A stretch of DNA of 64,000 bases from Dipteris shenzhenensis (Eukaryota), in assembly GCA_047967505.1 (NCBI GenBank), contig CM106538.1; one strand, 5' to 3'. A program made the position numbers and the translations under genes. The notes beneath the pieces were generated by a model. The model saw only the letters and a list, made by a program, of their open reading frames with translations. It was not told where the DNA came from and searched no databases. Numbering within the stretch: the first letter of the stretch is position 1; each line of letters starts with the position of its first letter. Of this stretch, positions 1,963-56,700 are shown one piece after another.

Positions 1963-2100
1963 CTGGAAGCAACAAAAACAAGACGATTGGAGCAGAAACT
2001 AAAGCTGCGAAGCAAAAAAATTGGGAAGCTGGTGCGTGTTGACACTGTACGCGATGCCCAAAACAAACCCAAAAAGCCAGAAAATGGTAAGCTGATTGAC

Positions 2101-2125
2101 CTGAAGCAGAGAAGGCCGATTCCAT
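2101..2125 (-). CDS. WASHC4: WASH complex subunit 4 (SWIP)-like gene, coding exon 1 (MESAFSAS + 1 nt)
   Basis: ATG at 2125; GT donor at 2100-2099; phase 1 joins exon 2 in frame (G+TT = Val). Confidence 0.7.
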
Positions 2126-29392: not shown

Positions 29393-30419
29393 TGTATTAA
29401 TAGCCGAATCAGAAATCAGGACTAGAGGCTAGAGGCTAAGCATGGCGACACTTGAGGGCCATAGAGAAAAGGAGAACGTGAGGGCGAAACGTTATCATGG
29501 GAGGGAAAAAGGAATTAGAAGGGGAGGGAATGAAGAGGGAGACTATGACACAAGGGAAAAGGGAGAGGGGGAAGAGAAGCATGTACATGATGGGAGGAGG
29601 AATGTAAAGACGCAGACATCAAGGGAAGAGGACCATGCTTTATTTTGAAAGGAAGGGGAAGGGAGAAATCAAAGTACTGGCTAGGTGGCTTTACAAGAAT
29701 GAGCATGTCCCATCAAGGAATAGCCCCCTCCTTTTATAGCCAAGAGAGGGGGTCTCTCCCAATAATGCATCCTCCCACATGCATGGTGTGTGTGGAAAAG
29801 TCTCCCATGTGGGCTAGGCGGTTACACACTCTCAATTGTGTGCGACAACATTTTGCCTCATTTTTCCACATAAATCAAGCCCCATATCTCAAGTCTATGA
29901 TACTCCCTTGGTCTCTTCCCAATTTTATAATACATTCAAACCTCTAGGAGGACAAGTGGAGGGTTGGCACAAGGAATCTTGCCACTTCATCCTACTTTCC
30001 CCATTATTTAACTTGCTCTCTTGGACCTTCTATACCTCCCCCACATGGGCCTATCCTATATGGAGGGAATAACCCAATATAATATCCATCTCCACCTATT
30101 TTATATTACTTCTCCCATGGACTTTGAGTACTTCTTCCATGGACTTTGAGCCATATCTCACTAAATGTAGCCTAGGTGGAGGGGTGGCACATGGAGGAGC
30201 CATGCCATCTTACATTTTATAAAATTACTACCATGGATCACACCTTATGGGTCCTCTTACGTGGAAGGGTGGCACATGGTCATGCTCTACCACCTCAACC
30301 CTGGGCCCTATGCATACCATATTTTATTATACTATTGCCACACATACAAACACACACACATATTAATGCCTTTTTCCTTATACAAATTTATCCATAACAG
30401 TTCCCTCCCAGGCATGGAA

Positions 30420-33400
30420 TGCACATCATTTCCATGCCTGGGTCCATCACACACAAAGAAGGGCTTGAGGTAACGCTTGTTGATCACCTTCTTGCCATAT
30501 GGTTCATGCAGCTCCTGAACTTGTACAGACCCATGGCTACGTTCCTTGATGACTTTGTATGGACCGATCCACAGTGGCAAAAACTTCTTATCCATTTGGT
30601 GGTCCAATCTGTTATCAAAGCATAGCATAACATCCCCCTCAGCAAAATATCTTTCCCATCCCTTGCGAATCTTAGCATCCAAGTGGGCCTTTTGTTGATT
30701 CTTTTGGATCCCTGTTTGGTGTAGTGCAAGGCATCGAGTTTCATCTAGCTTCTCAAGTTGTACCAATCTGGCCTCTACATGTTCATCTTCTGTCATCCTC
30801 TGTTCTTGTGCCAATCTCAAGGCCGGAATCTCTATCTCTAGTGGTAAAACTGCCTCAGTACCATACACCAACTCAAAAGGAGTGTGACCTGTAGACGTTT
30901 TATGAGTGATGTTGTAAGCCCACACGCTTCAATGACCTTTTGATCCCACTGGCTCCTGTTCCCTGCGGCCATTTTTCCCATGGTTTTACAAAGGAGGCCA
31001 TTGGTCCACTCCGTTTGACCCATGGATGCTGGATAATAGATGCTAGAAGTGCGATGATCAATACCCATGCGATCCATAAGTAACTCCATTGCTTCATTTA
31101 AGAATGGACTCCCATGGTCAGAGACTATTTCCATGGGTGTCCCAAACCTTGTGTAGATACGTTCAAATATGAAATTTGAAACTGCCTTACCATTTGCAAC
31201 AGGGAGGGCGATAGATTTAGCCCACTTAGTGACATACTGAGTGGCTACCAAAAGATACTTCTTTTTGTGGGCAGTCATGGGCAAGGGCCTGACAAAATCT
31301 ATTCCCCACTTCTGAAATGGATGGATGGACATCACTGGGTGATTGCCCAAAACGCAAATCCTTCCTACCAAAGAATTGACATGGTTTATAGGTTTTGCAA
31401 TACAAAGTGACATCCTTGAACAAGGTCGGCCAATAGTATCCAGCATGTAAAATCTTCTTAGCTGTATAGTCACTGGCATAGTGGCCTCCACAAAATCCAT
31501 CATGATAATGCTTCAATACCTTAGGCACTTCATCTGCATCAATGGCCCGTCTTAGTATCCCATCCATGCCTTAACGGTACAACACCCCATCAAGGAGGGT
31601 GTAGTGCCTACTATCTCTGCGGATCTTCTTTCTCTCATAGCTAGTACTTTCTGGAGGAAAGGAGAAAGCAGTCAGAAACCTATAGATACCACCATACCAT
31701 GGATCCCCAACTTCTATGGTCGCTACAAGGGTTACATCAAGACACTCCTCTATATCAATCAAAGCATTCTTCAAGTTGGAACAACCCCCTTTTACAATTT
31801 TGAAAGAAAAATCATATTCTTGTAAAAGTGCCAACCATTTGGCCAACCGGCCCATGGCGTTTGATGATTGAAGAACCTGCTTTGCAAGACCAGTGCTAGT
31901 GAGTATAATGAAGGACTTTCCAGCCACATAATGCCTAAATTTCTCAATGCAGAACACCAAAGACAAGGCATGCTTGTCAGCCTCTGAATAGCATCGCTCA
32001 GTGTCGAGCAATTGTCGAGAAGCAAATCGAATGGGATACATGAACCGATTCTCCCCTTGCTGGAGAAGAATACCTGCCAGAGTGTGCTCACCAAACCCAG
32101 GATTGATATAGAAAGTTTTTGACCAATCTGGATTGCGTAGAATGGGTTCTGAAGCCAGAGCATTCTTGATTTGTGCAAACCCATGATCACAATCCTCATC
32201 CCAAGAGAAATCAACCCCATCTTTTAATAGCATAGTCATGGGTCGTGTCAAAGCAGCATATTGATCAATGAAGCAGCGATAGTATCCTACTAGATTGACA
32301 AATGAGCGTATTTGACGTTTGGTTGTTGGTGGGGAGAGCTTGAGGATGGCTTCTACCTTCTCGGGGTCAGGCTTGACGCCCTCAGATGAGACAATATGTC
32401 CCAGTAACCTCCCTTGAGTAGCTCCAATGGTGCATTTCTCAGGGTTGAGACTGCCATTCGCATCATTGACCCTTTGGAAGGCCAACCTAACCTTCATGAC
32501 GTGCTCTTTACGTGACGAGAATATACAAAAATCATCTAAAAACACCTCCAAGAAATCCCCCAAATAAGGAGCAAACACCATCTGCATAAATCTCTGAAAT
32601 GTAGCAGGAGCATTGGTGAGGCCAAATGGCATTACTTTGAATGCAAATGTCCCCCAAGGTGTGGCAAATGTGGTTTTAAGCACATCCTCCTCAACAATCC
32701 CGATTTGATAAAACCTGGAGTAACCATCACAGAAAGTATACATCTCATGACCACTTACCTTCTCAAGAATGAGGTCTTGGAAGGGAAGAGGGTGATGGTC
32801 CCTCTTGATGGCTGCATTGAGTTTCTTATAGTCGATGCAGACCCGCCACTTGTTTTTCTTTGGGGTGACTACCAGTGGTGAAACCCATTCCGTATTGTGA
32901 ACCGGAACAATAAACCCAGCTTCTACAAGTTTCTGCAACTCTAAGCGCGAAGCATCGATATGTAGGGGCCCTAATCTCCGATACTTCTGAGCCACAGGCT
33001 TCGCATCAGGCTTCAGCTCTATCTTGTGTTCTATGGCAGTCACATGGTGAAGGTGGCAGTAGCTAGTTGCGAAAAGGTCAAGGAAATCTTTGAACATATC
33101 TAGGAACTCATATTTCTCACTTGGAGTGAGGTCTGGGGAAAGCATAGATTCAAGCTGTTGAGGACTAGCTGTTACCTTTTCTGCAGGTGGTGGGGTTGGA
33201 GACACCCCCTTCATGTAAACTTCCTCCTCTGAGAACTCCTCCCCCCCTCTGATTCTTCCATTGATTTAGACAGCGAGGATGAGAGAGTATCACTATCTTG
33301 CTCCTCTTCTTGTTTTGGTTCCGTGGCACCTGGTTGCACCAGGATCTTCTCCTTAGAAGCACCAAAAGATGTGTCCTGTCTTCCAATAGCTGACTACATC

Positions 33401-33802
33401 ACTCTTTCTCAACCATGGTCTCCCGAGTATGGCTGGGTAACTCCTACTTGTATCTTCAATGTCCACTACACAGAAATTGACGATGGTGGTCAACCCATTA
33501 ACCGTGATGGGAAAATCCTCAATGACTCCTAGGGTGGTGAGTCGTCGACCATCTGCTACCTTGATTCGAGTGGAGGAATGCCTTGTACATTTCAAATTCA
33601 ATTTCTTTATGATTCGGGGCACCATGATATTGCATGCAGATCCCCCATCAACACACACATTTTTGACACGGCAATTATTTATGATGACATCTATTGTATG
33701 TGGATGCCGATCGATTTCTATAGAGATGGAAGATATCTCTCCTACCTTTCCCTTTTTCTTGCTTCTCCTTGTTGAGAGCCCTTGGTGCAGCTCACGTCTC
33801 AC
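30420..33802 (-). pseudogene. Gypsy pol: protease, RT, RNase H, integrase (disrupted)
   Basis: VCVDGGSACNIM..AILGRPWL (PR); WRVCIDYKKLN, MPFGLTNAPATFQR, VFLDDF (RT); YPIRFASRQL (RH); HDGFCGGH, KWGIDF, IVSDHG, GQTE, WIGPYKV (IN with GPY). Confidence 0.95.
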
Positions 33803-33899
33803 CTAAGGGCTTAATGCTATTAGTTGAGGGAGCATGATGCTCAAAGAACGATGAGCAAGGTCCTGAATGACCGAATAGTAGATCTTCTTGCCCCGAGCT

Positions 33900-35072
33900 G
33901 ATGGAAAAATCTGAGGGTGACCACTTACTCTTGTGAGATCTTTTAGTCTTCTCTATTGGTGGGTCTGCCATCTCAGCATCTGAGGGCACTGAGAAGGACA
34001 CCTTCTTCCTGGGGCGGCCTGGTCCACAGTTTGCAGAGGGGTCTGAGGTGGTACGACTTCTTTTCCCGAGGTCGAGGATCTCTATATCAGAATTCTCAGT
34101 GCCAGATTCACTTAGAAGATTCACCCTTGGAATATTGGGACATTCCATGTGATAATGACCTTTCTGGTGGCACTCGTAGCATACAACATTAGCTCGGTCT
34201 CTTAGAGGGTGGTTGGCTTGATTTCTGATGCCCACCATCTCAAGCCGAAGATCATTCAGGGCCTTGGCTAGGTCATTAACTCCGGGTTCTTTTGCAGGAG
34301 GGGCCTCTTTAGTTGGAGGGGCCGAGGGAGTAGAAAGGAGGGGGGCTCGTGGGCGAGGCTAGGGAAATGTTCGAGGCAGAGGGTGAAAATATACACCTTG
34401 TTGAGGGTAAGCATCTAAGGGAGGACCATACATTTGAGGTGGAGGTAGTGGATACATCCCTGATGAGGGGTGGGGGTATGCCCCTGAGTTAGACCCCCCA
34501 GGTTGTCATTGCAAGAATTGAGGGGGTTGCAGAGGGACAATTGTTTTCTTTGAAGCGGGATCAGATTGAACTTTATCAAACTTTTGAGCAATCTCATTTG
34601 CTAGCACCATAGTTTCTGGATTCTCCCATTTAAGCTTGAGGCGGAATTCGTCACTTGCTCCTGCTACAAGGTAGCCCAGCACATGCTGAGTCATTCCAGC
34701 TTGAAATCCGGCATTGTCCTCCTGTGTGGCAATTAAACGGTCTAAGAGCATGGCTGCTCGATCCACATATCGACGCATCATCTCACCTTCTGACTGCTTC
34801 AAGTTTGCCACCTGCAGGTACACATTCTCCGGCTCCTCTTCTTTGCCAAAATACTCAATCATCGCTGCTGTCAACCTTGGCCAGCTTTGGCGAACGTCTT
34901 TGGCCTACTTCGCATACCACACTTGAGCCAAACCCTCTAGAAATGTGGGAAGAACCAACAGCCATCTGTCTTCAGTAAGAAAGTTGAGAGAAACACAACG
35001 GCGCTTGAAGGCCACAAGATACTCATTTGGATTTTCTTCAACCCGTCCACGAAACACGGGAATGTCAGCCAT
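33900..35072 (-). pseudogene. Gypsy gag with CCHC zinc knuckle (disrupted)
   Basis: ATG at 35072 gives MADIPVFRGRVEENPNEYL; LKQSEGEMMRRYVDR; CYECHQKGHYHMEC. Confidence 0.88.
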
Positions 35073-39545: not shown

Positions 39546-40647
39546 TTAGAGCTTGTCAGCCATGGGATCAGAGTCCATGAAGTAGCGATTGAGGGGACTG
39601 TCTGGCAGCATTTCCATGTGATCAAATACTGAAGAGGAGGCAGGAACCTCGTCCACCTTTGTTGCGGAATCAGGTCTTTGCGAGGATCCTTCTACCTCCA
39701 TGGTGGGTTCAGCTGCGCATGTTCTCGTTCCTGTTGTTGCCACCGTCGTCGCTACTACTGGCGGGGAGCATTGCGCAGATGACACGATTTGTTGATTCGA
39801 GACGGCGAGAGACTGCAACAGGTGTTGGATTGCTGAAGGTTGCGACTGATCTTGTGTCGTCAACATCGACCAATCCAATGGCGAAACTGGCAGCTGACCT
39901 CGCCGGAGAGCAACTTGTACGGAGCTGAAATCCTTCGCATCGCGCTTGTGATCCGCCTCTGCTTGTTCTGCTGCTCCCAATCTCGTCGATGTGTCTTCCG
40001 AAAATTCGTGAGCTCTCTCAGCAAAACTGAGGTTGATGCCAGCGAGGGATGGCGATTGTGATTGCGATTTCGCTTGAAGCAGGCACTGCGAGACTAGATC
40101 TATGGTCCTGGGCCGAACGTTGAAGTAATCGCTGCTGTTGTTGCTAGTACAGCTAAAACCTGCGTCTGCATTGCTGCAGCTATCGCTAATTAGAGCTGCA
40201 GCGTGAAGCTGGCAAAAGTCTGATTTGATGTCGGGAGAGGTGACGGGAGGGCCAAATCTGGGAGTGAAGGCGGAGCTATGGATGGTGGGGGAGGAGGGAG
40301 GGAGGAGGGTGAAGGCAACGGTGGAGGAATTGGAAAGCGACAGGGGAAATGGAAGCAAATTGGGATGTTGCTGGGGAAGCAAATTAGCAAATGGGACATG
40401 GAGCGTGTTGGAGGTAGTGGAGATGGGTGGTTGCTGTGAAAATCCTTGGAGACATTGCATGGAGATTTGAGGCATCAAAGGCTGTTGGAATGCAAAAGGC
40501 CATGTCTGATTGTCTAATTGAGAGGATCTGCAACTGTGGTCGCCTCTGTATGTGACATCACACATCGTTGCATCCTCGTCACACCTCTGCACGTGCTTGA
40601 CTGCTTGGCATCCAAGATCGGATTTGTGCGTGCATCTGTAGTAGCTC
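39546..40647 (-). CDS. WRKY: Group III WRKY transcription factor, exon 3
   Basis: GCAG acceptor; SYYRCTHKSDLGCQAVKHVQRCDEDATMCDVTYRGDHSC (C-X7-C-X23-H-X-C); open to TAA at 39548-39546. Confidence 0.95.
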
Positions 40648-40829
40648 CTGCATCACACAATACATCAGATTGATTCCAAGCATTGCACAATTGCTTTCTT
40701 GTAATCTTTCAGTTTAGAATCTCCTTTGAGATTCTTGCAATAGTTTCGGTTTGGAATCTCCTTTTAAATTGATAACACAGGAGATCCCAGGTAGTCCTTT
40801 CCTCAAAGCATGAAATATTTGTTCTAAGA

Positions 40830-41225
40830 ATGCATACCAATTGTTCTTTAGATCCATTCCAAGAATCATACATGTTCAAACGTCAAACAATGTGTGAGCT
40901 CTATCCCAAATATTTGTTAGGGATATTTGTTGTAACAATGCATACCAATTGTTCTTTAGATCCACTCCAAGCATCATTCAAACGTCAAACAATTGTATGG
41001 AGTTTTGTCCAAGCATCATACAATTTCGAACTTTAAACAACGCATCATATATCTTTTCCAAAATTTGTTTCACACAATGCATCATATCCATTGCACTACA
41101 CACTTTAAACAATTGTATGGAGTTCTATGCAAGCATCATACAATTGTTCAAAATTTAAACAATGCATCATATCTCTTTTCCAAAACTTGTTTCACATAAT
41201 GCATCATATCCATTGCACTCACACT
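40830..41225. repeat. Tandem duplications in WRKY intron 2
   Basis: 40828-40890 similar to 40937-40992; 40988-41106 similar to 41108-41227. Confidence 0.85.
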
Positions 41226-41368
41226 TTACCGCAATGAGTTCAAACAATTTGAGCACAAACATTTTACACCCTTAAGCTTCCAAATCATTACACGGCAACA
41301 ACCAAGCATTCACGACATTTCTAACAAATTTTCATGCTAAAAGACTTGGATTGCAAGTAATAGAGCAC

Positions 41369-41503
41369 CTCGGATATTTGGCACCTAGAATGTCTTTTTG
41401 GCCATACTTTCTCCAAGTGTGACCATCATTCGGAGGGATTTCCACGCCCTGATCCAAATTGCTAGCAGGCATCTTGAGCATCACTTTGGGCAACAATTTC
41501 CTC
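41369..41503 (-). CDS. WRKY: Group III WRKY, exon 2
   Basis: [30 protein letters not shown]; the conserved phase-2 R-type intron follows (AG|GT at 41369). Confidence 0.96.
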
Positions 41504-41800
41504 CTAGCAAAGTTCAATCGCATCAGATTCTACCTTAAAATTTGGATCTAAACCCATCACTGATCTAGATAAACAGAATGCACTGGTGATCTAGATCAAC
41601 TATGCAACAGAATGCACTCCTCAACATTTTGAATTGAACCAGATCAACAGAATACACTAATGATCAACTATTCAACAGGATACACTGCTCAATATTTTGA
41701 ATTGAATCAGAATACAGTGCTCAACATTTTGAGTTGATCAGATCAACAGAATTCCACAGAATTGATCTAGATCAACAGAATACACTACTGCTCCACGCAC

Positions 41801-42441
41801 CTCTTTCTCGGATTTTCTCGACCATCCTTGCTCCTGCCGTTGCCTCCGGCAGCCCCGTCGTTCTCGGCTGTCTGATCTCCTGCCTCCTGAACACCGGTCC
41901 CTACCTCCTTTTCCAGCTCCAGACTCAGATTTACTGTTGGAGACCCTTCCGACATCTCGCTCGTCGGACTATTGTTGCTGTGCGGCGGGCTTCGTGTAAC
42001 CCTCTTTGCCATTGGAGTTGCCGTCGTTGCCGCCATGCCGCGCGGTGACATTGGTGGCGTCTCCTCACTCCGAGTCGTGGACAGAGGGCTCCCCACCGCC
42101 CAGAATGGCCTCTTCTGCGCTCGCGGTGACATAGTGCAGCGATCCACCAGCTGCTGCGATGGCGAGGCCGAGCTACTGGGAACTGAACCTCTGCTACCGC
42201 TACCGGAAATGAGGAGCTTAATTGTATCGTTGAAGGTAGCAATCACCTCTACTGCACCAATTACGAAGCTGGAGCGAAGCTCGGAGCTGTCGGCTTCGCA
42301 GAGCTTGCCTGGGGGAGTGGTGTGCAGCTTCTGCTCGAGCTCCTTCACAAGCTCGCATCCTTGAAACAGCTGCTCTCGCACTCTGTGATCGAATTTCAGC
42401 ATTTCGTCATCTTCCTGGTGATCTCGAAGATCCTGTGCCAT
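41801..42441 (-). CDS. WRKY: Group III WRKY, exon 1
   Basis: ATG 42441 (MAQDLRD); REQLFQGCELVKELEQKL is typical of the group III N-terminus; ends ENPRKR with GT donor at 41800. Confidence 0.88.
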
Positions 42442-42938
42442 CCAATTCTTCGTCAACTTGCAGACAGCGCGATCGACCTTGCTCAGCTAGTGGGCAACCT
42501 GAATTCGCAATTCTCTCTCTTTCTCTCTGTCTCTCACTCTATAACAGGACCCGAGAGTTCTAAAGGAGTTGCGTCACTTGCGTGCTCTCTCGGGTTAATT
42601 TCTCGCGCAGCTGAACTTGGAGCAGTGGCTGGTTGAGGCGAAAGTAAAGTTCCTTCCCTACTTCTGAACTCAATTTGGACTGATTCTATCGATGGCTTGC
42701 ACTGGACAACCTGAATTCGCAGCCGCCTCCACTCGGTAACAGGACAGGACGTGAGAATCCTAAAGTTGCATACTCTGTCGCGCTAATTTTTCGCGCAGCT
42801 GAACGTCGTGGGGCAGTGCCATGCTGAGGCGAAAGAAAAGTTCAATGGGGGGCAGGACAATTGTCCCCTTTGCCTAGCTCTTTTGCTTTGGTCTGAGCTC
42901 ACTGATCTCTTTGTCTTTACAGTTGTTCCTTCTACCTC

Positions 42939-42983
<45 letters not shown>

Positions 42984-43109
42984 CTTTCTTTCTATTCTTC
43001 TGATACCGTATTGTTTTATCGATCAGGAAGAGGCGAAGGCAGACGGGCGAAGGATGAACGAGGGGCAGCGGCTGACTGAGTATAAACTTGAGGCCAGACA
43101 GGGGCACTC

Positions 43110-43710
43110 GCCCACGTGGCATCTCCACGTCGAAAAACGCCACGTAGATTTCCACCGAACAACGCTTCTTATAGCTTCCATTTAAGGCTTCTGCACTTTA
43201 CAAAGACTGAGTCAAACTATCCACACACGTGTTCAACGGTCAACCTTTAAATATTGACTACGACTCTTTTTCCCCTCACGCCGTTCAAATTTCCTTGAGC
43301 AGGCCGTCCCCCTCCCTCTCTCTCTCCTGTGCTCCTTTTGCTTGCCCTCCGATATCGTCAAGTCCCCTGCTCCACACCCCCTCTCCTCTGTCCGCAAGCC
43401 TCCAACCGGTTTGTGCCTTGCCTTCATCTGTTTTTGTCAATGTCCCTCCATCATGAAATCATTTCCTTGCTCACTCTCCCACAATTCCACAATTCAAAGT
43501 TTGTCCCCCCTAAACAAGCTCATGACCTTCAATTTGTTATCATGGAACCGAAATAACATCATGTTGGAATTCAAAGGGGAAGAGTTGGTTAATTCACATC
43601 AATACAAAGGCTTTTCAATACTACTTGCTGATGTTGATGAGAATGATAAGACACGGTCTGTAATGTTTCACAAAGGAGCGAAATGGTCAAATAATAACTT
43701 TTGACTGAGT
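43110..43710. promoter_or_regulatory. W-box and G-box/ABRE cluster upstream of WRKY
   Basis: TTGACY (either strand) at 43210, 43238, 43254, 43685, 43701; CCACGTGGC at 43112, GCCACGTA at 43139, CACGTG at 43226. Confidence 0.65.
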
Positions 43711-43742
43711 CTCCTCGCTACTTGCCTCAAGTTGGAATGTTG

Positions 43743-43787
<45 letters not shown>

Positions 43788-43814
43788 TTATGGCATTCTT
43801 ATTCTCGAGGGGTG

Positions 43815-44070
43815 CACTAATAAGAAACCCTATGTATCACGTGCGTTCAAAGGGTATTAAAAAAAAAACCTCAACTAAAATTTGCCTCCCAATGAAAACA
43901 TCCCTCTTTGCTTATGGACTAGGTGATTTTTTTATAAAATTGAATTAAAAAACCCCTCTTGTAATCGTAATCCTGTTAAATTTTATAGAAAAGTCAAATT
44001 AAAATACCCCTCCTTTTGAATGCACATGGTACATTAAAATTTTATAAGGTGAACCCTGAGTTCTTATTAT
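43815..44070. mobile_element. MITE-like inverted repeat
   Basis: 43831-43851 TATGTATCACGTGCGTTCAAA vs rc of 44015-44035 AATGTACCATGTGCATTCAAA; AT-rich interior; exact ends and TSD unclear. Confidence 0.5.
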
Positions 44071-44952
44071 TTACTTGCATTAGTGTTCATATCAAGGACT
44101 TTGAGTCATCTTGTAACTTTGATCTATTCTAAAAATTTCATGGAGAAGATTTGAAAATATAGCACATTTTGCTATAACTTTTCGAGCATGTCACAATATT
44201 CAGAGATTTCCTAACCTAGTGAAGTTATACGATTATGTGATTTTATGATTTACATCTTATAACGCCATCACTAAAAGGTAGACTTGATTAAAGAACACTT
44301 TCTAATATTCTCTTAAAAAATGACCAATCATTACCATAACATGACAACAAACCTCTTTTTCCTTTGGCCACAAAACAAACTAAAAAACAACGTGTACTCA
44401 TTTAAATACTAGTAATTTAAGGGGAAAATCTTTCCATGAGCTTCTTGTCGTGAGCTTTTGTGGCACTCCAAGTTATTTGGTGAGCTTTATCCACCACTAG
44501 AATCAGTCGCGTGTACGCCAGCAAAAAGGTGGTGGTTGTCATTGCCACCCAAAAATGCATATTACGAAGCCTCTGGATCTTGCCGTCAGTATGTCCTCAT
44601 CAACGCAAGAGGCAAGTGATGATGAGGATGACTGGCGGTAGAAATACGAATGTCTTAGGGGAGGTAATAAGTGATGATGAGGACTGGCGCTTGAAATGTG
44701 AATCCCTTTCTCCAGTTTTTGCAGCGAATACCAATATACGGCGAATGCTGGCACCTCCAGATGCGAAAACATTGCATGAGAAATGCGAATCCAAGGCCCC
44801 GAATTTGGCATCAAATGCTAGTACAAGCACCTCCGCATGCGAAAACATTGTGAAACTGAAACTATGGCAAATATCAACACCTCCACATGTGGAAACATTG
44901 CACGAGAAATGTGAATCCAAGGCCCTAGATTTTGAGCCACCCGCATTGTGTA

Positions 44953-45015
44953 TGTGAGAAAGCTGCAAGTGAGACTCCTTACTTCCCTCCCACTCTCTTC
45001 ACATGGTATCAGAGC
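44953..45015 (+). mobile_element. Very short LTR-like segment followed by a tRNA-iMet PBS
   Basis: TGTGA...TCACA (44953-45003) immediately followed by TGGTATCAGAGC; no partner LTR seen. Confidence 0.6.
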
Positions 45016-46039
45016 TTGGTCAGTGGTAGCTCCTTAAAAATGCACCCCCGAAGGAATGATATCCCCCGGCCTACAGATTGCTCGATTGCGGCCAATTCTT
45101 CCCTTTAAACATCATTCATGAGTATCAACTTGTGTCCTCAGCTAGCAGACTGTCCATAGGAACAAAATTCCCCGGCATGAAGATTGCTCGACAGCCTGCG
45201 GCGGCAAGCTTCTCCCTGTAGCTCAGTTCACCATCTGTACCTGTGTGTCTTTCTATTCCCTTTGACTCATCTCGCCGGATCTACATGAAGTAGATCCTCT
45301 GTGCGAGCCATTGCATATTTGCTGCACGAATGATATTCCCCGGCCTGCAAATTGCTTGACTACATCCAACTCCTCCCTTCAGCTCTTCCATTGTACCCCT
45401 TGCATTGAATAATTCCTCACCTGTCAGGCTGTCCATCTGGCTACTTCCTCTGCCACCTTCGACAAGAGAAGGCATTGTTCGAGTGGTATATCTGTGTATG
45501 GTGACCAAAGTGTTGGCTCTTGGAAGTTCCTTTTCGGGCGAGACATCATTTCACCAGATCTACCTAAGTAGATCCTCAGGAGGCCTACCAATTGGCTGTT
45601 GCTTCAGTTGCAGTAAAGGCTTCAAACGATTCATTGCATTCTTTGCTAAAGGCATCGTTCCAGTTATTTGGGGTCTCAACCCTGACTTCATGCCCAAAAT
45701 TGATGTAATTTCAAATAGCTCCCTCTTTTCAGACTTCTTCCAGGCCCATTGTTCACTAGCAATGAGGACACGAATATTGCGTGAAAAAAAAGACTGTGCA
45801 TGATAGCTAGCAAACCTAAGCAGTGCGGACATGAATATCGCCTTTCTTTCAAGGTGGGAAGAAAAAGTGTCCTTGAATAGCGCCTACCCTGGTGTAGGCA
45901 ATGCAAACACATTGCGGGTTTTTATAAAAATATAAGTAGTGCGGAAACATTGTGGAAACAAACTTTTGATTGAAACATGTTCAATTACATTCCAAGGGCC
46001 AGCCCTCCATCCCAACTGTAGATAATGTTAGAGGCCAAC

Positions 46040-46962
46040 TAACTCTTATGCACACTAAGCAGTGATGCTATTTGTGTGGACGAAAAGGTTGGCTGGTGAA
46101 TGAACATGTCTTCACTCTTACGTAGCCCTATAACATGAAGGAACATGTAGTACACTTGTGCTTGCAAGCCAAGTATGGTTTTTTGGCCACCTCTCTTTTT
46201 TGGAAATTAGGATAGCTACAGCAGGGCTCTGTCTTGACTTGCACTTCGTAGGTGCTTCCACTGTTGCTGGAAACATGAAACACACAATGTCGCAGGGGCT
46301 GTATTGTCATCTTTGCGGATACCACTACATTCATCTCCTCTGCACTTGCAATTCTCTTGGAGGCCTCCTTTGAAATTCCATGTCTCCATTTGGACGATCT
46401 TGTAGCTATAGCACTGTCACTTTTCCCGGTCGAGTCCCTATTGTTGGTAGGATTAGAGGTAGGCTCTGTTGGTATGCCCGAGGACACCGCTTTAACCCAT
46501 GCTGACTTCACATTTATTAGCTTGGAACCCAGCTCATTGTTGTAGATGACATAGCTCTGCTAATGTTATATTTATTCCTACATCAACCTGGCTCTAGGAT
46601 ATCTACTTCTAAGAGAAGGATCTTTCAGTAGCAGTCGTGCAAAATATGGGATTCCAACTTGCAGGATGATTTGAGCTCTCCGAAAGTGTTGGTTTGTACA
46701 ATATATTACTATCCACATGCTATGTGTGCTCCCAATCATCTGTACAGAACCACATCCACTGCGGTTTCAGTCCACCGGGGCCAGGATGGCATCTTTCAGA
46801 GAAGAAACAAGGAGTCACGACTCCTTGAGAGATTTATTCTATATGGCAACCACACTTCCTCTTATCAACTGTGCCAAAACACTTCACCCTTGAAAGTTCT
46901 GCGTATTGCCCACATAGAACGGTTCACCGCCTCCTCCATGAGACTAAGGACCTCCTCTCTAT
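46040..46962 (-). pseudogene. SWIM zinc-finger protein pseudogene fragment (probably TE-derived)
   Basis: GSTYEVQVKTEPCCSYPNF..YLACKH then YYMFLHV..FIHQPTFS (YxV..CxC..CKH pattern); upstream WAIRRT and WFCTDD; frame abruptly replaced at about 46963. Confidence 0.7.
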
Positions 46963-47169
46963 TGGGTCACATTAGGGGAGAATTGGGGTCTCAAAAGGGC
47001 CAGGAATGGATCAGGGAATGCTTAATGGGCTAATGCAAGGGGCTTGGAGGGTCCCAAAGAGGCCTAACCAGCCCAACCTAGGTGGGTTAAGCCCACATTT
47101 GAGCCCACCTCCCCCCCCATCAATGAGGGGAGGGGGCCACTTTTTGAATTTTAAATTTCAAAATTTGAA

Positions 47170-47700
47170 TCTCCCTCCCTCCCTCCCTCTCTCTCTCTCT
47201 CTCCCTTCCTCCCTCTCTCTCCCTCCCCCTCCTCCCTCCCTCCTCCCTCCCTCTCTCTCTCTCTCTCCCTCCCTCCCTCTCCCTCCCTCCCCCTCCTCCC
47301 TCCCTCCCTCCCTCCCTTCTCCTTCCTCTCCCTCCCTCCCCCTCCCTCCTCCTCTCCCCTCCCTCCTCCTCTCCCCTCCTTCGTCTTGCGCCTCCTCCTC
47401 CCTCTCCCCTCCTCCTCCTCCTCCTTCTGGCTCCTCCTGCCTCCTTCCTCTCCCCTCCTTCTCCAGCCGCCCTACTCCCTCTCCTCTGCTCCTCCCTCCT
47501 GCAGAATCTCTCCCCTCCTCCCTCCTGTAGCATCTCTCCCCTCCTCCTCCCTTCTACAGCAGCTCCTTCCCTCCCTTCTACACCAGTCGCCCTACTCTCC
47601 TCTCCTCTTCCTCTTGCCCGATTTGCTTCTCCTCCTCCCTCTTCCTTGCTACTCTCTCCCTCTCACTGCTCAATCTTTGCCAGCTCTCTCCTACATTTTA
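47170..47700. repeat. Polypyrimidine low-complexity tract (CCT/CCCT/CT)
   Basis: About 500 bp, almost all C/T on the plus strand, just upstream of the transposase ATG. Confidence 0.95.
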
Positions 47701-47946
47701 GCCTGCATCACTGATACCTCTCTTTGAGTACTTATGGCACCATTCGAGGACATATCCAACAAGTACCATGTGAACCTACAACTAGAGGTAGAATATACAA
47801 GCACACGCCTTTTGGAATATAGTGGAACTCCTCAAAGTGTGCTCCACAGTCTTTGATTGCAAGGGAAGAAGCATCTTGACCTTTGGGTGGATGGAAACTT
47901 GTATCCTTTAGAACCTGCCACCCAAAAGAGTCCTCCTTTTCATATA

Positions 47947-49390
47947 GTGCATGATGTTTGGTTTGTTGGCAATAGACATGCTGGATTGCTCAGTTATTGC
48001 AATCTATTGTGGCAATGCATAGTAGTATGCAAGATCTCCAATTGCAAAACAAAGAACTCAGTGACAAAGCACGTGCACTAGACTTGGAGCGACAGGAATT
48101 GGAAGAATCAATCTAGAAGCTTGCTAAAAGCAAACAAGATTTGGAAAGGTCTATCTATGGCCAAGTTCAACGTGCTATGGAGAAGGAACGAGAGAAGTTG
48201 ATAGAACAAGTACAAAAGTTGAAGGAAACACCTTTGGGACTGAAGGAGAGGAAAAGAAAATTGCAATCTATGGATGCATTGTCAACCAATAGTGGTTCCC
48301 GAAAGAGGAGAGTACGGGCTGCAAGGTTAGTTCCCCAAAATTTCAATGAAATTTCTTACTCCAAAATATTCATGGTGTTGCATTGTTTCCACTAAGACTC
48401 ATTTGTACTCAACTTTAGGAATTTCATGGAGGATGCAATGGGAGCATTGGAAATGGATGATAGTGATCCTTCATATGTCCTAAGAAGTTTAATAAAGCCA
48501 AGTGATGTCATTGAAGTGTTGAAGGACCCCAGACAAAAAGGGCTACGTGAACAAGTTGCTAGAGAGGTAATGAAGGACTTTAAGGGCCTCGTGCAAGCAA
48601 AGGAGATGCTTGGAACTTGTGCCGGTGCATGATGTTCAGTTTGTTGGCAATGGACATGCTGGATTGCTCGGTTATTGCAATCGATTGAACCATTCTTAGA
48701 CATTGGCTATGCAAGCAAGCGAGGTGTAGAGAGCCCAAGCAGAAGAACTTGCACATTTGGGAAATATTATTATTGTGCCAATGCATAGTAGTATGCAAGA
48801 TCTCCAATTGCAAAACAAAGAACTAAGTGACAAAGCACGTGCACTAGACTTGGAGCGACAGGAATTGGAAGAATCAATCTAGAAGCCTGTTGAAAGCAAA
48901 CAAGATTTGGAAAGGTCTATCTATGGCCAAGTTCAACGTGCTATGGAGAAGGAATGAGAGAAGTCGATAGAACAAGTACAAAAGTTGAAGGGAACACCTT
49001 TGGGACTGAAGGAGAGAAAAGGAAATTGCAATCTATGGATGCATTGTCAACCAATAGAGGTTCTCGAGAGAGGAGAGTACGAGCTGCAAGGTTAGTTCCC
49101 CAAAATTTCAATGAAATTTCTGACTCCAAAATATTCATGGTGTTGCATTGTTTCACTAAGACTCATTTGTACTCAACTTTAGGAATTTCATGGAGGATGT
49201 GATGGGAGCAATGGAAATGGATGATAGTGATCCTTCATATGTTCTAAGAAGTTTAATAAAGCCAAGTGATGTCATTGAAATGTTGAAGGACCGTAGACAA
49301 AAAGGGCTACGTGAACAAGTTGCTAGAGAGGGAATGAAGGACTTTAAGGGCCTCATGCAAGAAAAGGAGGTGCTTGGAGCTTGTGTTGCT
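47947..49390 (+). repeat. Tandem duplication of about 680/760 bp within the transposase gene
   Basis: 47947-48624 and 48625-49388 are colinear, including the intron; the first copy lacks about 85 bp. Confidence 0.95.
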
Positions 49391-50090
49391 GTTGGTGTAA
49401 GTCGTGAAGCTTACAACTCTGTTTTTAAAATTTTCAAGTCTGCTACGAAGGAAAAGTATGAGATATCTACAATGCCATTGCCAACACCGTGGTCTGTAAG
49501 GCTTGCACATCAAGAAACAAACCAATGTACTAGAGAAAAGCTTGGAGGATACCATTGTTTAAGTGGCACAATGACTTGGAAGAGCAAAAAGAAATCTGGC
49601 ATCTAAACGTTTGAGATTAATGCTTTCAATAATGTTTACGTGGATGTAGAGAATTTGCAGAGAGCCATGGTCAAATTCTAAGGGATGAGAGAAGAAGATA
49701 AGAGAAATTCCCTCTTTGCATTTAACGTTATTTCTTCCCATTTCTATATCCTTAATGTATTTCTCTTTCATTGTACAGATGGCAAGCTAGTATTTGTTAT
49801 AAAAATGGATGAAGCTCAGTTGGTAAAAGACCACAAGCTAGAGAGGGTGAGCATTTGTATTATGAACGATGCCTTACATTTTTCTCAAGGGGATGAGGAA
49901 GTTGAGCAGGGTTTCTTAGTCTAATTTGAGGACATATCGTGGCTTGCAGCCTTTGAGACCCCAAAGGAGTGGCACGAGACATTGAAGTGGGTTTTGGAGA
50001 GAACCGACATCCTGTCGATTATTCAAAGATAAGAGGCAAGGCAAACATTAATAGTGGATGGGCATGGAATGTTTCAAGTTGAATGACATC

Positions 50091-50350
50091 CAGCCAAGAA
50101 AAAAATTAGGGGCGAATTTTAGCCCAAGGGCTAATTTAGCAGCTTTCCCAAGTTGGTTGGGCTAATATTTAGAGCTTTAAATTTGATAAATTAGCCCAAA
50201 AATAAAGGTGGGCTAATTTTTAGAGCCTCCAATTTGATAAATTTGCCCTAAAAGTGGTAGAAGGACTAATATTTATAACTCTATATGGGGGAAGGTTTGC
50301 CCATTGACCTACACTGTCATAATCTTGTTCCCTCATAATTTTTTACCCTG
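50091..50350. mobile_element. 260 bp MITE-like insertion with 4 bp TSD
   Basis: CATC|CAGCCAAGAAAAAAATTAGGGG ... CCTCATAATTTTTTACCCTG|CATC; removal restores VE*HLVGDLK; internal GGGCTAA repeats. Confidence 0.85.
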
Positions 50351-51739
50351 CATCTAGTTGGTGATTTGAAGACCCACAAGTGCTTGTATGGCTTTGATAT
50401 AGGTGTAGATGCAAAATGGACGTGCTTGTATTGCACCCACTCTCAGAAGATGCAAAAGGGAAGCCTACAGTGGGAAAATGTCATCCTTTCTTGCAACCAA
50501 AGTGCAGCCCCTGATCATCATAAAAAGGATCCTAAGTGGGACCCCATTCTACTAATTCCATTGGAGCGGGTACACGTGTGTACTTTGCATGTTGAACTGC
50601 GTATACTTGATAAGTTACTCTATCTCCATCTAGTTTATGCTTGGAATTTGAGGCTGCATCAAGTATCGACACAATGCATTGCAAAAGCTGAAGAACTACT
50701 CTCACTAATGGGACTTCACGGAGGCAATGTGAAGCATAAGCAGGACAAGAAACAATCAGGAAAGACACAAAATCTTCCTGTAAAGTGTCCATGGGTGGAG
50801 GAAAGGCAAGGAGGTTCTTGTCCAACCACAATGGTGATATAGAAAAACATACATTGGCTCAAAGGACCCTAGGTTGGGAGTACTGGAAAGCTTTGTGTGA
50901 GTGCACTACAAATCAAGCTTCACATCTGCGAATTGCTACTTTGAGAGCAAAACTATGGACAAAGCTTGATGCATTTATAAAGTTGCTTAGACAAGGTTAA
51001 ATAGATGAGCTTTATTATGAGAGATTCAGGACAACATTGGGAGAATTCATATCATTGATGGTAGAAGCATGGGGGGAGTCACATCTTACACATTACATGG
51101 TTATCCTCCTTAGGCTGAAATTTTGTGCTTGAAACTTGATTTAGTTTATGTTTCTAATATGATGTTTTTCTTTACAGCATATTCTTTACGCACATGCACC
51201 ATGGTTTGTGGAGCAATGGGGCCCTCTGTCCATTTGGAATACTCAAGGAATGGAGAAATTGCACCACACAACAAAGGCAACATACTTCAAGAACACAAGG
51301 CATGGGGGTGGTATCACACAAAGCAATGCACTACACGAAATGTTCGACTGGTTTTATAGATGTCTAGAGGCCAGGACTCTCAAGCACGATAAGGTAGAGG
51401 TCTCAAGTCTCGCAAAAGTGGTTCAACATGTCAAGAAGACAAGGAGATGTGCTGCTTGGAAGTCCTCAATAGGGAGCGAAGGGGTTGTGCTTTGGTTGCA
51501 ACGTAGTCAGACAGGGGAGGCATTGGGTCCTAAGAGAACCCCAAATGTAAAATGTTTGATGAATAAAGTTAACACTATTTTGAGTTAATTATAGATTCCA
51601 AAATTCATAAATTTGTTTGGAAATTGCAAAATTGCATGTGCGACATGGCAAGGCGGAGGGGTGGGTGGTTTGGGAGGGAGGGTGGTGAAGATTAAGCATT
51701 ACCGAATTGGTGACAAAAGACTGGGGGGGAGGGGGTGCA

Positions 51740-51830
51740 CTCAAAAACCCTAATTTAAAAGGGCCTATAAATAAAAACCCTAAAGTTCTTTAAAAAAGAC
51801 TATATAAAGCACTTCAAAGCCCTAAAATCC
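51740..51830 (+). promoter_or_regulatory. Putative promoter of the H3-like gene
   Basis: Two telo-boxes AAACCCTAA (about 51745 and 51775), TATAAATA (51766) and TATATAAA (51801), about 100-150 bp before ATG 51912. Confidence 0.5.
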
Positions 51831-51911
51831 CTCATTTCTGTGGCACGAGTTAAACAAACTACTAGACTCATTGGACGTCGCTTAGATGCTACCCGCTCTC
51901 CTCACAATTCC

Positions 51912-53090
51912 ATGGCCTTCGAACACACTACAAGAACCAGTGGCCAAGAGGGCAATGATTAGCAAGGATCTAAATGCGGTTCTCATCATCATGAGTCCTA
52001 GCAACACGAGTCCTCACCATCTGATTCTCATTGGGGATCCCAGGGATCTTAGCACCATGAGGAATCCCAGCATGATGAAGGATCCAAGCACGATCAGGGG
52101 TCCTCTCAGTCCTTCCACACAACTAACCGTGGAAGTAGAGAGGTCTCCCAGGAGGGACAAAATAGTCCAATCAATCGTGATCAACTACCCTTCCCTCCTC
52201 TGTGGGGTCCTGCCATGGAGCATTTAGACCAACAAGGGGAGCAAGAAAGGCAAAGCGAGGAGATGGAGAGATTAAAAGGGCCACAACAAGAGGAAGTATT
52301 TGGTGAGCTCACAGATATAATGAACCTTGGCCCCAATCATCCAACCAAGCAGACCGCACGAAAGAGGACCCCCTTTGTGCCTTAGGATGGTCACATATGA
52401 GGAGCCTCTAGTACGAGCTGAGCAAGAGCCTCAACCTACTGTCTCACAGCCTCATCAAAAGGAAAAGGGAACAAGGACAAAGCAGACCCCTAGGCGCGAT
52501 AGGCCACCTCGAAGGACCCACCAGATATAGGAAGAGGAGTCTAAAGAGGAGGTTGCAAGGGAGGAGAGGCAAAAGAAGTTCAAAGTGGACAAGCAGCCAT
52601 GGATCCATGTCCAGGGGCTGGCCCCCAAAGATTAAGAGGTGCAAAAAATCAGGCGTGAAGGCACTTCAAGAGATCCGACACAGGAAGAGGAGTCTAAAGA
52701 GGAGGTTGCAAGGGAGGAGAGGTGAAAGAAGTTCAAAGTGGACAAGCAGCCATGGATCCATGTCCAGGGGCTGGCCCCCAAAGATTAAGAGGTGCAAAAA
52801 ATCAGGCGTGAAGGCACTTCAAGAGATACAAGTTCCAAACCACTGTGGACAATCTCATTCACCGTGCACCCTTCTAGTGTGTTGTACGTGAAATAGCACA
52901 TCATCACAAGGATGATATGTGTTTCACTTCAGGTGCTATGGGAGCAATTCAGGAGGCAATGGAGCAGATGATAGTAGGTCTTTTTGAAGACGTGAACTTA
53001 TGTGCTATCCATGCCAAAAGAGTAACAATGATGGACAAGGACCTTGCACTCGCCAAGCACATCTGCTCTAATCCCTTCCTTAGGCCCTAG
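51912..53090 (+). pseudogene. Divergent histone H3-like pseudogene with long N-terminal extension
   Basis: [86 protein letters not shown] is an H3 histone fold. TKQTARKRT at 52344 and RTKQTPRR at 52474; 153 bp tandem duplication at about 52527-52830; intronless. Confidence 0.92.
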
Positions 53091-53334
53091 ATGTTGTTTA
53101 GCTCATTTGGTGTAATCTGAATCATTTTGTAATCTCAATACAACATAGTGTACATGTAGCTATATCGTGTGCACTCCTCTCTCCCTCTCTCTCTCACACA
53201 AGGAGTGATGATATGGAGTGTTACAACTATTCCAAAACACATTTATGGAGCTTTATGTTCAATACAACATAGTGTACATGTAGCTATATCGTGTCCACTC
53301 CTCTCTCTCTTTCTCTCTCTCCCTCCCTCCCTCC

Positions 53335-53394
<60 letters not shown>

Positions 53395-53744
53395 ATTAGC
53401 GACCTTATCCTTGTAAATTTTCATCGTTATACTTTCCCTTTATAATGTATTTGATCTTTTTTCATTCCAAAAATGAAAAAATGTTTCCTTTCTTTATTTA
53501 AGAAGATTTATTTTTCTTTCTTACCAAATCAATAGAAATGTTGCCTTTGAGAGTATAGGGTTCCTATCTAGATTAGTTGGAAAAAGCATAAGAACTATTC
53601 TCATGAGATAAAGTAAATTCATAATCTATGTTGATTTGTTCTTGTTGTATTATTGTTGTTGCTTATTAGTGTTTACCCAAAGATAATTTTAAAAGAAGCC
53701 TTTTGTCTCGAATTGTGTGTGGATGTGCACTTGGGTCACATGAT

Positions 53745-56700
53745 GTTGTCATTTTGCCTAAATATATGCTTGGCCAAAAGGATTTTTTATATTTTAACTT
53801 TTTGATGTGCCTTATTCTATTAGTTATTACCTCTAATCATCCCCTTCATAATGATTATAAATATTTTCTTTAATAAACACCAATACACCCCATTATCCAA
53901 ACATCTATACCAAACATTAGTTTTGCCAAGAAGAACAAGTACTATATAAACAAAGAAAAGCAACCATGTCAACTAGGTTTGAACAAAATTGAGAAATCAT
54001 TTCAAAAAGTTTTCATTATATGGGTACATGTATGGGTGTGTGAATAGGTTCTTTGTATGCGTATGTGTATGGGTTTTTTAATTAAAAATATTTTGATAAA
54101 AATTTATTTTATTGGATTCTAGTTAATATAAAATTAATGTGTGTGTCTGTGTGTGTGTGTACATGTCTAGGGGTTGTGGATGCATGAGAGAATTGGTGGT
54201 AAAGCTAAAGGAAAAAACAAAATCTAATGCTGTTAATAGATTGGTTAACAATACGCCACCGCTGGTTAAGTGATGTGATTTGATGGTGGACAATGGCGAG
54301 TCCGCAGAGCTTGGATTGTGTCTTGGAGCTACATGGGCCCAAGAGGATGGTAAAAGAATGAGAAGGGAGAGTGGTATAAACAAATTAGGTTGGCCCTCCC
54401 TTCAAAAGGTGACTTATATAAAAGGCCAAATGGTTGACTTTGGTCTTCATTGTTGTTTGCACAAGTTTGAATACAAGCTCCCTCTTCTCTTCCAAGAGAG
54501 TGTTTTGGGTGTTCTCTTGTTTCCATTGTAGTGCCCTTATGTTGCCACTCCATCCCCCTTCACTCTGCTCTTCCCTTCTCCTTCTCCCTCCCTTCTCCCC
54601 TCTCTTCTCCCCTCTTCCCTTCCCTCTTTCTCGCATGGAAACACATTGCAACAATCCGGAGGCCACTTGAGTGACACTTGCGGATGACTCATGCCTTTCA
54701 TTGCTCTCACAAGGAGTAGCTTGGAGTAGAAGCTCCATCGGCATCTCTTCAACATTCCCATGTCACACGAGTCACACCACTTAGACCACACATTTTTTGT
54801 GGTTGCTGCTGGGGAATAAAGGTATGCTTTTGCATTGCACTTGTCTTCCTTCGTTATCTACCCATTGCACAAGGCTTCAAGCTTAACTTGGAGATTTGTT
54901 AGTGGAGTTGTAGGAGAAGAGAGAGGGAGGAAGTGAGAGGTTTGGATGGAAAAGTAGGAAAACTTTTTTTTTTTGTTGGAAAGTCATTTTGGAGCATTTG
55001 AAGCTTGTTTTTTATGCTTTTTAGTGTTTTGAGTTGATAGGATTTTAGTGTGTGATACCATCTTGTCAACCTCCATACCTACCTTGGCATCCTCAGGGTC
55101 ATCAAGCTCAAAGTTCAATTCTCACTCATTGCAAGATCCACCACCAGCTGAATTATCCAGCTCGGAAGAGTCCATGAGTCAAGATAGAGACATGGGTGAA
55201 CCCTCTAATGTTGGAGCGTCAGTGGCTCTGAACTCCATCCCCATTAATCTCCACTCTCCTACTCCATCTACCACAGCAACTACATTAAGGGAAACCTTTT
55301 CCAATATCATGGGAAGGATTGGATTGACAGACCCAATAGAGTGGCTAAACCCATTTGCTGGTCGGGACTAGGGCAATGTCAAAGGCTCAAAAGCTAGCCC
55401 AACCACCGATGTCAGAAGCAATACTCAGGGAGCCAAGTCCCACAATACCTAATGGCAATCAACCCCCGTCGTACCAATTCTTTGATGATACACAATCCTA
55501 TGGGGATGGATTTGGACCCACATTCTCACAAGGGTCCCAAATGCTAGAGCAAAGGGGGCAGAGGAGTAACCTTGAAGGCTCACAATTAAGACCCTCCACC
55601 TTAGAATCCCCTATGATGCCTCCTTGGCAACAAAACATGGGAGATATTCTCTACCCAACAAGTGTCCCTTATAGTCCTATTCCTACAAGGAACATACCAC
55701 TCACTAGAGGACCTCTAGTCCAACTTGTTAGGCCCAACCTGACCCAAGTCACAATGCCAATGCCTAGTGGGCTTGGATCCTCCCATCCCAACCTCATGCC
55801 ATCAAATCCATGGAACCCTTCATTAGGATCACCAATGTATGGGACATTGCCCACCATTCCACAACCTCCTCTTGTATCGCCAATGGTCCTTATAGATGAA
55901 GCTATGAGAATCATAGTGCAAGCACCACCGCTCCACCACCAATGTTTCTAGGATGGGATACCAATCCCTCAAGGAGCAAGCCTATCACAATCTCCAAGTT
56001 AATCACCAAGTTTGTAGGAGAAGGAGACCCAGTCTCCCATGTTGAGAGGTTTGAACAAATATGTGACACCTTTGGTGATATTGGGGATCTAGACAAGGTC
56101 AATGCTTTTAGCTTGAGTCTTGATGGCAAGGCTGGACAATGGTTTAGAGCCTTAAACCCTAAGGAGAAAATAAATTGGGACACATTGTGTAGATCTTTCA
56201 TTCTGGGGTTTGCCCCCAGTGGTCCCAAGTGGAGCCCGCTTAACCAGCTTTATGATGAGAGGATGATGTGCAGCTTCTGCCACGCTTCCTCATAGGGCTA
56301 TGAGATGCTAAGCTGCATGATCATCTGTTTGCTATGAATCTCACATCATTTGAGCTATGCAGCAAGACCACGTTACACCTAGGGGATAACATGAGGGAGA
56401 TGCCCCAAAAGGATAGATCCTTAGCTTCCTCTAATATGTCTCGAATAGCACAAGCTTCAACCTTAGAAGCAACTAGGGGTGCAAGCATGATGCCCAAAGT
56501 GCTCAACATGAAAGAGTTGGCCACAGATCTATTAAACAAGTTGAGCCAACAATGGAATATAGAAGCACCAAAAGATGCTCCTAGCAACCCCCATCTCTTT
56601 CCACAAAGAGATAACATATGGTGTGGGGTATGCACTGGAAGTCATCTGACCAAGGAATGCCCTCGTCTTTTAGAACTAGGCTAACACTCTACTGTGCCCA

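Follow-up and report, generated by a model that had tools for sequence, protein, structure and literature searches.

The locus described here raises the question of what a histone H3-type fold represents when it stands behind a long front part in which the first residues of the H3 tail recur. Within the window (the whole analysed stretch of 64 kb), one copy of an H3-like gene was found, a single H3-derived gene at 51840-53090 on the + strand in which a non-canonical front part of ~330 codons is followed by the histone fold. This copy is almost certainly a pseudogene. The reading preferred here, with a probability of roughly 0.65, takes the whole locus for one decayed pseudogene derived from a lineage-restricted and strongly diverged histone H3 paralogue that was once one long reading frame.

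The window is plant-like nuclear DNA that is rich in mobile elements, and the following features were located around the H3-like locus.

8944-9639: copia-type reverse transcriptase
22192-22890: CACTA Transposase_21
30.3-34.9 kb: gypsy-type element with RT, RNase H and integrase
39546-40652: WRKY-domain exon
49160..51585, + strand: broken ORFs of a DDE-transposase-like gene (language-model look-alikes), ending 255 bp before the H3-like start
55.9 kb: gag fragment

Additionally, a 765-bp tandem duplication was observed just upstream of the H3-like locus.

The locus itself comprises the following features, in which the recurring H3-start motifs and the frameshifts are numbered along the + strand.

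51706: ATTGG, which is CCAAT on the opposite strand (pattern search)
51745..51807, + strand: promoter-like stretch (direct reading and pattern search)
51745 and 51775, + strand: AAACCCTAA boxes, or telo-boxes (pattern search)
51766 and 51801, + strand: TATA-like boxes (pattern search)
51840, + strand: GTG at the expected start-codon position (frame common to ATG 51912)
51843-51866, + strand: motif 1, ARVKQTTR (same frame as ATG 51912)
51912..52343, + strand: Q/E/H/S-rich low-complexity extension of 144 codons (frame of ATG 51912)
52051-52098, + strand: 18-bp repeat in the extension (repeat search)
52344-52370, + strand: motif 2, TKQTARKRT (8 of 9 residues identical to canonical H3 residues 4-12)
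52370..52372, + strand: frameshift 1, private to the window copy (organism A contig with 5 extra letters)
52471-52497, + strand: motif 3, TRTKQTPRR (one frame over from motif 2; R at the K9 place)
52528..52530, + strand: TAG in the frame of motif 3 (direct reading)
52529-52681 and 52682-52834, + strand: in-frame tandem duplication of a 153-bp (51-codon) unit, the two units being 98.6% alike
52620..52630, + strand: frameshift 2, with a run of five C (52621-52625) in GGCCCCCAAAG as its likeliest site (inferred from the two frames)
52826..52830, + strand: frameshift 3 (~52827), private to the window copy (end of the second 153-bp unit)
52830..53090, + strand: H3-type fold with the end of alpha-N, alpha1, loop 1, alpha2, loop 2 and alpha3 (Pfam and alignments)
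52875-52877, + strand: TAG replacing a conserved Q inside the fold (alignment to H3)

Motif 1, the 153-bp duplication, frameshift 3 and the TAG inside the fold had been missed by the initial annotation. It had also closed the gene at 52830, which is where the fold starts; the gene ends with the TAG at 53088-53090.

The original start was probably at GTG 51840, the ATG having since been lost, and not at ATG 51912. The start was placed there because ARVKQTTR follows right behind the GTG and because two TATA-like boxes and two AAACCCTAA boxes are present. Together with the ATTGG, these boxes (51706-51807) are what we take to be putative plant promoter elements. ATG 51912 does open 144 Q/E/H/S-rich codons interrupted by TAG stops (51960, 51999 and 52050), as had been described. 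No Pfam family was recovered for the extension or for the alternative-frame ORFs.

Three H3-start motifs, not two, lie upstream of the fold, all on the + strand. Motif 1 aligned to canonical H3 residues 1-7 and is identical at six of eight residues to the ARTKQTARKS-type N-terminus. The motifs already known were recovered with the coordinates and frames given for them: TKQTARKRT at 52344-52370 in the frame of ATG 51912, and, in the neighbouring frame, TRTKQTPRR at 52471-52497, whose K9 position is taken by R, followed by the acidic/basic stretch that had been described before the histone fold. When alignment to H3 was compared with shuffles, P was 0.002 for motif 2 and 0.026 for motif 3. When the 64 kb were translated in all six frames, the pattern KQT.R turned up three times, each time at the H3-like locus and on the + strand, versus a mean of 0.6 over 30 shuffles. 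The narrower [TV]KQT[TAP]R, which was composed after the motifs had been seen, also occurred three times, at the same three sites, versus a mean of 0.03. The three H3-start motifs exceed chance.

Motifs 2 and 3 agree at 11 of 12 bases and their flanks have no similarity, which suggests that the motif was kept as its surroundings drifted. Beyond the 5-8-residue motifs, the three sites share nothing in DNA or protein comparison; a duplication origin of the motifs is what we infer, with similarity confined to those residues. The earlier description of a tail motif that was duplicated and internalised therefore stands in part: the motif is reiterated inside the long front part, and the third copy at the true N-terminus makes internalisation an incomplete picture. 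A whole-tail tandem duplication was considered as the source of motifs 2 and 3 and rejected; their spacing of ~45 residues is near the 43 in H3, but similarity outside the motif is not significant. The K9 context (ARK) is retained in motif 2 alone. K27 and K36 contexts were undetectable, as the initial annotation had held; in alignment, the remainder of the tail did not exceed shuffles (P 0.31, 0.39 and 0.75).

The fold was identified by profile and by alignment. Pfam PF00125 matched an uninterrupted 70-aa ORF with E 1.2e-18 and, when the TAG was read as X over 52827-53087, profile positions 46-121 of 122 were matched with E 6.8e-23 and 81.7 bits. Using tblastn with canonical H3, 46 of 78 residues were identical (59%) with no gap and E 4.5e-27. 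An 18-residue block across alpha2 and loop 2 is identical to H3, and the residues C110, H113, D123, L126 and I130 (standard H3 numbering) are kept. The remaining 32 of 78 residues differ (41%), without an indel and with a single stop. A single C>T or G>A accounts for only 6 of these differences, whereas a transversion is required for 11 and two or three substitutions for 12. Neutral decay fits the fold poorly, given that so many residues changed and yet no indel, one stop and an unaltered 18-residue block are found.

In-frame stops in the inferred frames number five, and all are TAG (51960, 51999, 52050, 52528 and 52875). The GGCCCCCAAAG five-C run proposed as the site of frameshift 2 is present in both 153-bp units, the second at 52773-52783, and the duplication of that unit is recent. 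Given the lost start codon, the five stops and the three frameshifts, the H3-like copy cannot make its protein. No working protein comes from the H3-like locus in the Dipteris shenzhenensis genome, and the roles that the initial annotation had put forward, a putative decoy or a putative silencing-resistant nucleosome component, cannot apply to this copy on account of the same lesions.

Contigs of relatives were compared with this copy. Five public sequencing runs were matched, each with 0.06 of words and none of those listed an RNA run, and four of them were compared over 48000-55000 (run X1 from organism A; runs X2, X3 and X4 from organism B). The comparison rests on contig coordinates, counts and a few letters. 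Contigs of organism B (1.5-2.4 kb, word depth 8-15) match 52026-53101 with ~8-11% differences, and short contigs span 51788-52031. By counts only, divergence from organism B is 23/272 in the fold, 52/523 and 69/651 in the extension, and 36-38/244 in the 5' part. Fold and extension thus differ from organism B to a similar degree, which would fit an old death of the gene. The 10 differences listed for relatives did not separate the reading frames by codon position.

The organism B contigs carry a single 153-bp unit, with joints at 52676>52830 (X3) and 52548>52780 (X2 and X4). At the X3 joint, two extra letters are present and thereby bring ...ALQEI and KFQTT... of the fold into one frame; gap counts in the X2 and X4 contigs agree with these two letters. 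The organism A contig on 52043-52370 has 5 extra letters, followed by an 18-letter continuation that matches the next bases of the window, and these 5 letters link the TKQTARKRT frame to the TRTKQTPRR frame. Since they are absent in the relatives' contigs, two frameshifts and the duplication are private to the window copy. The motifs and the fold were thus formerly in one frame, relatives restoring two of the three frameshifts and lacking the duplication. The proposal of the initial annotation could have failed if the motifs had never been in frame with the fold; contigs of organisms A and B rejoin the frames at frameshifts 1 and 3, and the outcome went its way.

The copies of organism B are frame-broken too, given that their spans over 52026-53101 (927, 924 and 940 letters, versus 923 in the window minus the second unit) never differ from 923 by a multiple of three. 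Lengths in X2 and X4 fit a gene in which frameshifts 1 and 3 are repaired, the C-run frameshift 2 is shared and in-frame indels are added; the X3 length departs from these by 13-16 letters. Frameshift 2 thus seems, from these lengths, to be common to organism B, and gene death probably predates the split from organism B on the strength of this apparent sharing.

Searches of protein libraries returned nothing closer than canonical H3. A word search of longer proteins gave 43 hits among 49 candidates, with identities of up to 58% across the greater part of the query and a lone 64% match that covers 57% of it. For proteins of near lengths, all 140 of 140 candidates matched, at no more than 60% identity. 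Hits of the word searches whose source was named were almost all H3. An exhaustive search of 1.84 billion representatives gave 8997 hits, the best 150 of which were at most 60% identical, none of them closer than canonical H3; a relative ~56% identical to H3 could hide inside an H3 cluster in that search, a case that the word searches cover. No intact copy was present among the sequences examined (window, libraries and relatives' contigs). A literature search for plant H3 variants that carry tail copies internally or have an extended N-terminus found no description. Separately, a metagenome match to the 110-aa extension ORF (95 pattern matches, 1 passing tblastn) was discarded as chance, being a single 8-residue pattern on a high-GC contig with bacterial-looking ORFs.

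We consider it probable that the gene once worked and did so with the whole long reading frame. The extension has 3 stops in 176 codons versus 6.5 in shuffles (P 0.083), and a second stretch has 1 in 85 codons versus 3.7 (P 0.10); these stop-depletion tests are individually weak (P 0.07-0.10). Before its death, the ancestral gene would have been one ORF of roughly 360 codons, with motif 1 behind an H3-like promoter, then the Q/E/H/S insert, two further (A)RTKQT(A)R modules and the fold. That fold may have been able to pair like H3, as its unchanged 18-residue alpha2-loop 2 block and kept key residues suggest. The tail would have grown by local duplication and slippage, a habit still visible in the 18-bp repeat and the 153-bp duplication, and the fold would have diverged from H3 under selection for an open frame until the gene was silenced. 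Our best guess for the living protein is a specialised H3 variant, perhaps germline- or stage-restricted, that offered K4-type motifs without the K9, K27 and K36 silencing sites.

The history may instead have run the other way, an ordinary H3 having died first and its extension and extra motifs having been added by neutral duplication, slippage and insertion, so that a three-motif protein never existed. Segment duplication is demonstrable at the locus (the 153-bp unit, the 18-bp repeat and the 765-bp tandem upstream), but neutral copies would be expected to decay evenly, and motifs 2 and 3 still agree at 11 of 12 positions between flanks that share nothing. Openness of the extension is only moderately supported (P 0.083 and 0.10), yet TAA and TGA are absent from ~365 codons of the inferred frames. 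Organism B copies are frame-broken, with lengths that vary between samples; two of the frameshifts are nevertheless missing in relatives, which implies that the frames were continuous. The fold, 32 of 78 residues from H3 by mostly transversions or multiple changes and with no indel, is a misfit for a recently dead ordinary H3. This assembly after death is unlikely. A narrower point concerns the unchanged 18-residue block, for which gene conversion from canonical H3, in place of selection, could be responsible; seven contigs per organism B run align at that block.

Alternatively, the H3-like gene may be, or may have been, an accessory or captured gene of the upstream DNA transposon that spread with the element. 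We regard this as doubtful on our analysis of the neighbourhood. The two genes lie on the same strand 255 bp apart, but the H3-like gene has its own promoter-like region and is present as a single copy in 64 kb. The upstream ORFs (49160-51585) show a D...CxxC...HxxxxH pattern, and by language model they resemble transposase clusters (Plavaka on 12% of one, RAG1 domains on ~25% of another, DUF4218 with a score of 0.77). Against this, the transposase call is weak: nothing relevant was found in Pfam at E up to 10 for these ORFs, and an AlphaFold model of a 167-aa upstream ORF, made without an alignment, had a pLDDT of 35.9.

The borders and the copy numbers were weighed in the same way. In favour of cargo, similarity to the window ends in every relative's contig at ~53101, which is 11 nt beyond the stop codon, and those of organism B extend 550-1460 letters past that point; however, neither terminal inverted repeats nor a target duplication was found for a transposon ending near 53101-53150, and inverted repeats pairing 53085-53330 with 41000-51700 did not rise above shuffle level except for GA/CT simple repeats. 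Word depth in the small run X1 was similar for the transposase part and the H3-like part (3-17), whereas in organism B (X2-X4) the H3-like part had a depth of 3.5-18, like other long contigs, versus 300-2300 for parts of the transposase region, ~100-fold apart. TET/JBP genes are carried by fungal Plavaka/KDZ elements, which would be a parallel if a transposon uses the H3-like gene.

There is one printed precedent for such cargo, and it was the only case recovered by a literature search for histone-carrying DNA transposons. In Dothideomycete fungi, hAT DNA transposons are reported to have taken up histone H3 and multiplied it, with hundreds of RIP-inactivated copies in a defined hAT element and, by a figure legend, two H3-like domains per element (PMC6710886). 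The fungal and the present loci are alike in having H3-derived sequence beside a DNA-transposase gene and many stops of the C-to-T type; they differ in that one copy without element ends was found in this window, in a plant-like host and next to a transposase-like gene of another, unclassified type (PMC6710886).

Returning to the decayed H3 paralogue, two further readings were weighed. That the gene is still functional, with frameshifts that are introns and TAG codons that are spliced out or read through, is very improbable. Every in-frame stop is TAG and introns do occur in plant H3.3-type genes, but one TAG takes the place of a conserved residue mid-fold, beyond rescue by any intron, the shifts lie within purine-rich coding-like sequence without a plausible intron length, and the start codon reads GTG. 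Reading of TAG as a residue was rejected separately, retrotransposon ORFs of the window being bounded by a mix of TAA, TAG and TGA.

The fold is of the H3 type and not CENH3-like, as judged from its sequence. A relic of centromeric histone CENH3 would account for the extension as a long, fast-evolving N-terminal tail, and a fold identity to H3 of ~59% is in the range expected of CENH3; yet CENH3 has a longer loop 1 than H3 and a divergent alpha-N/alpha1, whereas here the alignment to H3 is gapless through loop 1, alpha-N/alpha1 residues are H3-like, three canonical H3-start motifs are no CENH3 trait, and among 176 solved-structure matches the 60 best were all named H3, with no CENP-A in that group, so that this origin is scarcely credible. 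The loop 1 length had been used as an argument against CENH3 before, and both the gapless alignment and these structure matches uphold it. Mouse H3mm variants were present among the PDB matches. CENH3/CENP-A resembles the locus in that an H3-derived fold follows an N-terminal part that is long and unconserved; the locus differs in the missing loop 1 insertion, the H3-like alpha-N/alpha1 and the canonical start motifs.

Canonical H3 (H3.1/H3.3) provides the closest frame of comparison, with an H3-type fold of equal loop 1 length, the intact 18-residue block and a start motif behind a TATA box. Unlike canonical H3, the locus has a fold that is 59% identical, a front part of ~330 codons versus ~40 and a start motif present three times, lacks K27/K36 context and is broken. 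Arabidopsis H3.10 and H3.15 are likewise diverged H3 variants. Histone-tail mimics in non-histone proteins, such as influenza NS1 and G9a, likewise contain, within their sequence, brief stretches that match the H3 start or tail and putatively engage K4 or K9 enzymes; here, in contrast, it is an H3-derived protein itself that holds such stretches, and its gene is dead. Internal copies would not serve readers that grip the free A1 amino terminus.

As it stands, this is a dead gene in transposon-rich plant DNA on which nothing depends, and only the discovery of living relatives would raise its modest interest. Among H3 derivatives it is unusual in combining a tail with a tripled first motif and a fold that has drifted by 41% from a highly conserved protein with zero indels, a shape suggesting that a fast-evolving H3 variant once existed which has no record in the libraries searched. 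Any surviving relatives would offer a natural experiment on what additional K4-type motifs do in chromatin when K9, K27 and K36 are missing, and would bear on whether mobile elements borrow histones. It is a long shot that the locus is the fossil of an undescribed H3 variant class (the K4 module three times, a tail of ~280 residues and no K9/K27/K36 sites), with intact members maybe present in relatives, given that the organism A contig already repairs one frameshift, and maybe a transposon-owned or -recruited chromatin tool.

The stops also carry information on how the gene decayed. C-to-T deamination at methylated CAG (CHG context) is a mechanism of decay, and it fits the observation that five of five stops are TAG; under this mechanism the stops would have arisen after silencing. 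Codon counts in the inferred frames were 18 for CAA, 5 for CGA and 13 for CAG plus the 5 TAG, with zero TAA and TGA in ~365 codons. If C>T had struck CAA, CGA and CAG equally, the probability that all stops are TAG would be ~0.016, TAG having been singled out post hoc. The all-TAG stops are a small, clean case of context-biased decay that fits CHG methylation.

All five in-frame stops of the H3-like gene, the decayed histone H3-derived pseudogene at 51840-53090 (+), were TAG (51960, 51999, 52050, 52528, and 52875). CAA and CGA codons were as frequent as CAG in this locus, yet the stops were TAG only, a sequence pattern that would be compatible with C-to-T change in a CHG context. The CpG observed/expected ratio was 0.32 in the locus versus 0.38 in the window. 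The following features overlap or flank the pseudogene:

47947-49535, tandem duplication of ~765 bp in three blocks, 94-96% alike
49160-51585 (+), DDE-transposase-like gene in broken ORFs, pattern D...CxxC...HxxxxH
51886-52227 (+), 113-codon ORF, open from its ATG
53135-53195 and 53259-53319, direct repeat of 61 nt, copies 95% alike
53301-53391, (CT)n run

The 113-codon ORF lies in the frame adjacent to the TAG-interrupted, Q/E/H/S-rich extension; it matched no family and probably arose as a side effect of the repetitive composition. Upstream, a Pfam search of the transposase-like ORFs returned no match, and their look-alikes by a language model were clusters bearing Plavaka, RAG1, and DUF4218. 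The tandem duplication doubles the first ORF of this gene (48396-48629 and 49160-49603), and parts of 49160-51585 reached a word depth of 300-2300 in organism B, a related organism. Downstream, similarity between the window and all aligned contigs (from sequencing runs of two related organisms) ended at ~53101, with the direct repeat and the (CT)n run lying shortly past this point.

Mobile elements and other ORFs were also found elsewhere in the window:

1472-2164 (-), ORF resembling the N-terminus of WASH complex subunit 4 (E 1.7e-9)
8944-9639 (-), copia-type RT fragment
22192-22890 (+), CACTA-type Transposase_21 fragment (PF02992, E 1.4e-28)
29021-29425 (+), protein-kinase fragment (E 4.6e-7)
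30332-34904 (-), gypsy-type retrotransposon carrying ORFs for RT, RNase H, and integrase
39546-40652 (-), WRKY-domain exon (PF03106, E 5.1e-11)
41785-42486 (-), second ORF near the WRKY exon

The CACTA-type fragment is an element distinct from the transposase-like gene adjoining the pseudogene, and the gypsy-type retrotransposon includes one clean ORF of 564 codons. Used as a word-search query, the WRKY exon returned no scored relative; it is followed by a long low-complexity ORF, and the second ORF may be an upstream exon.
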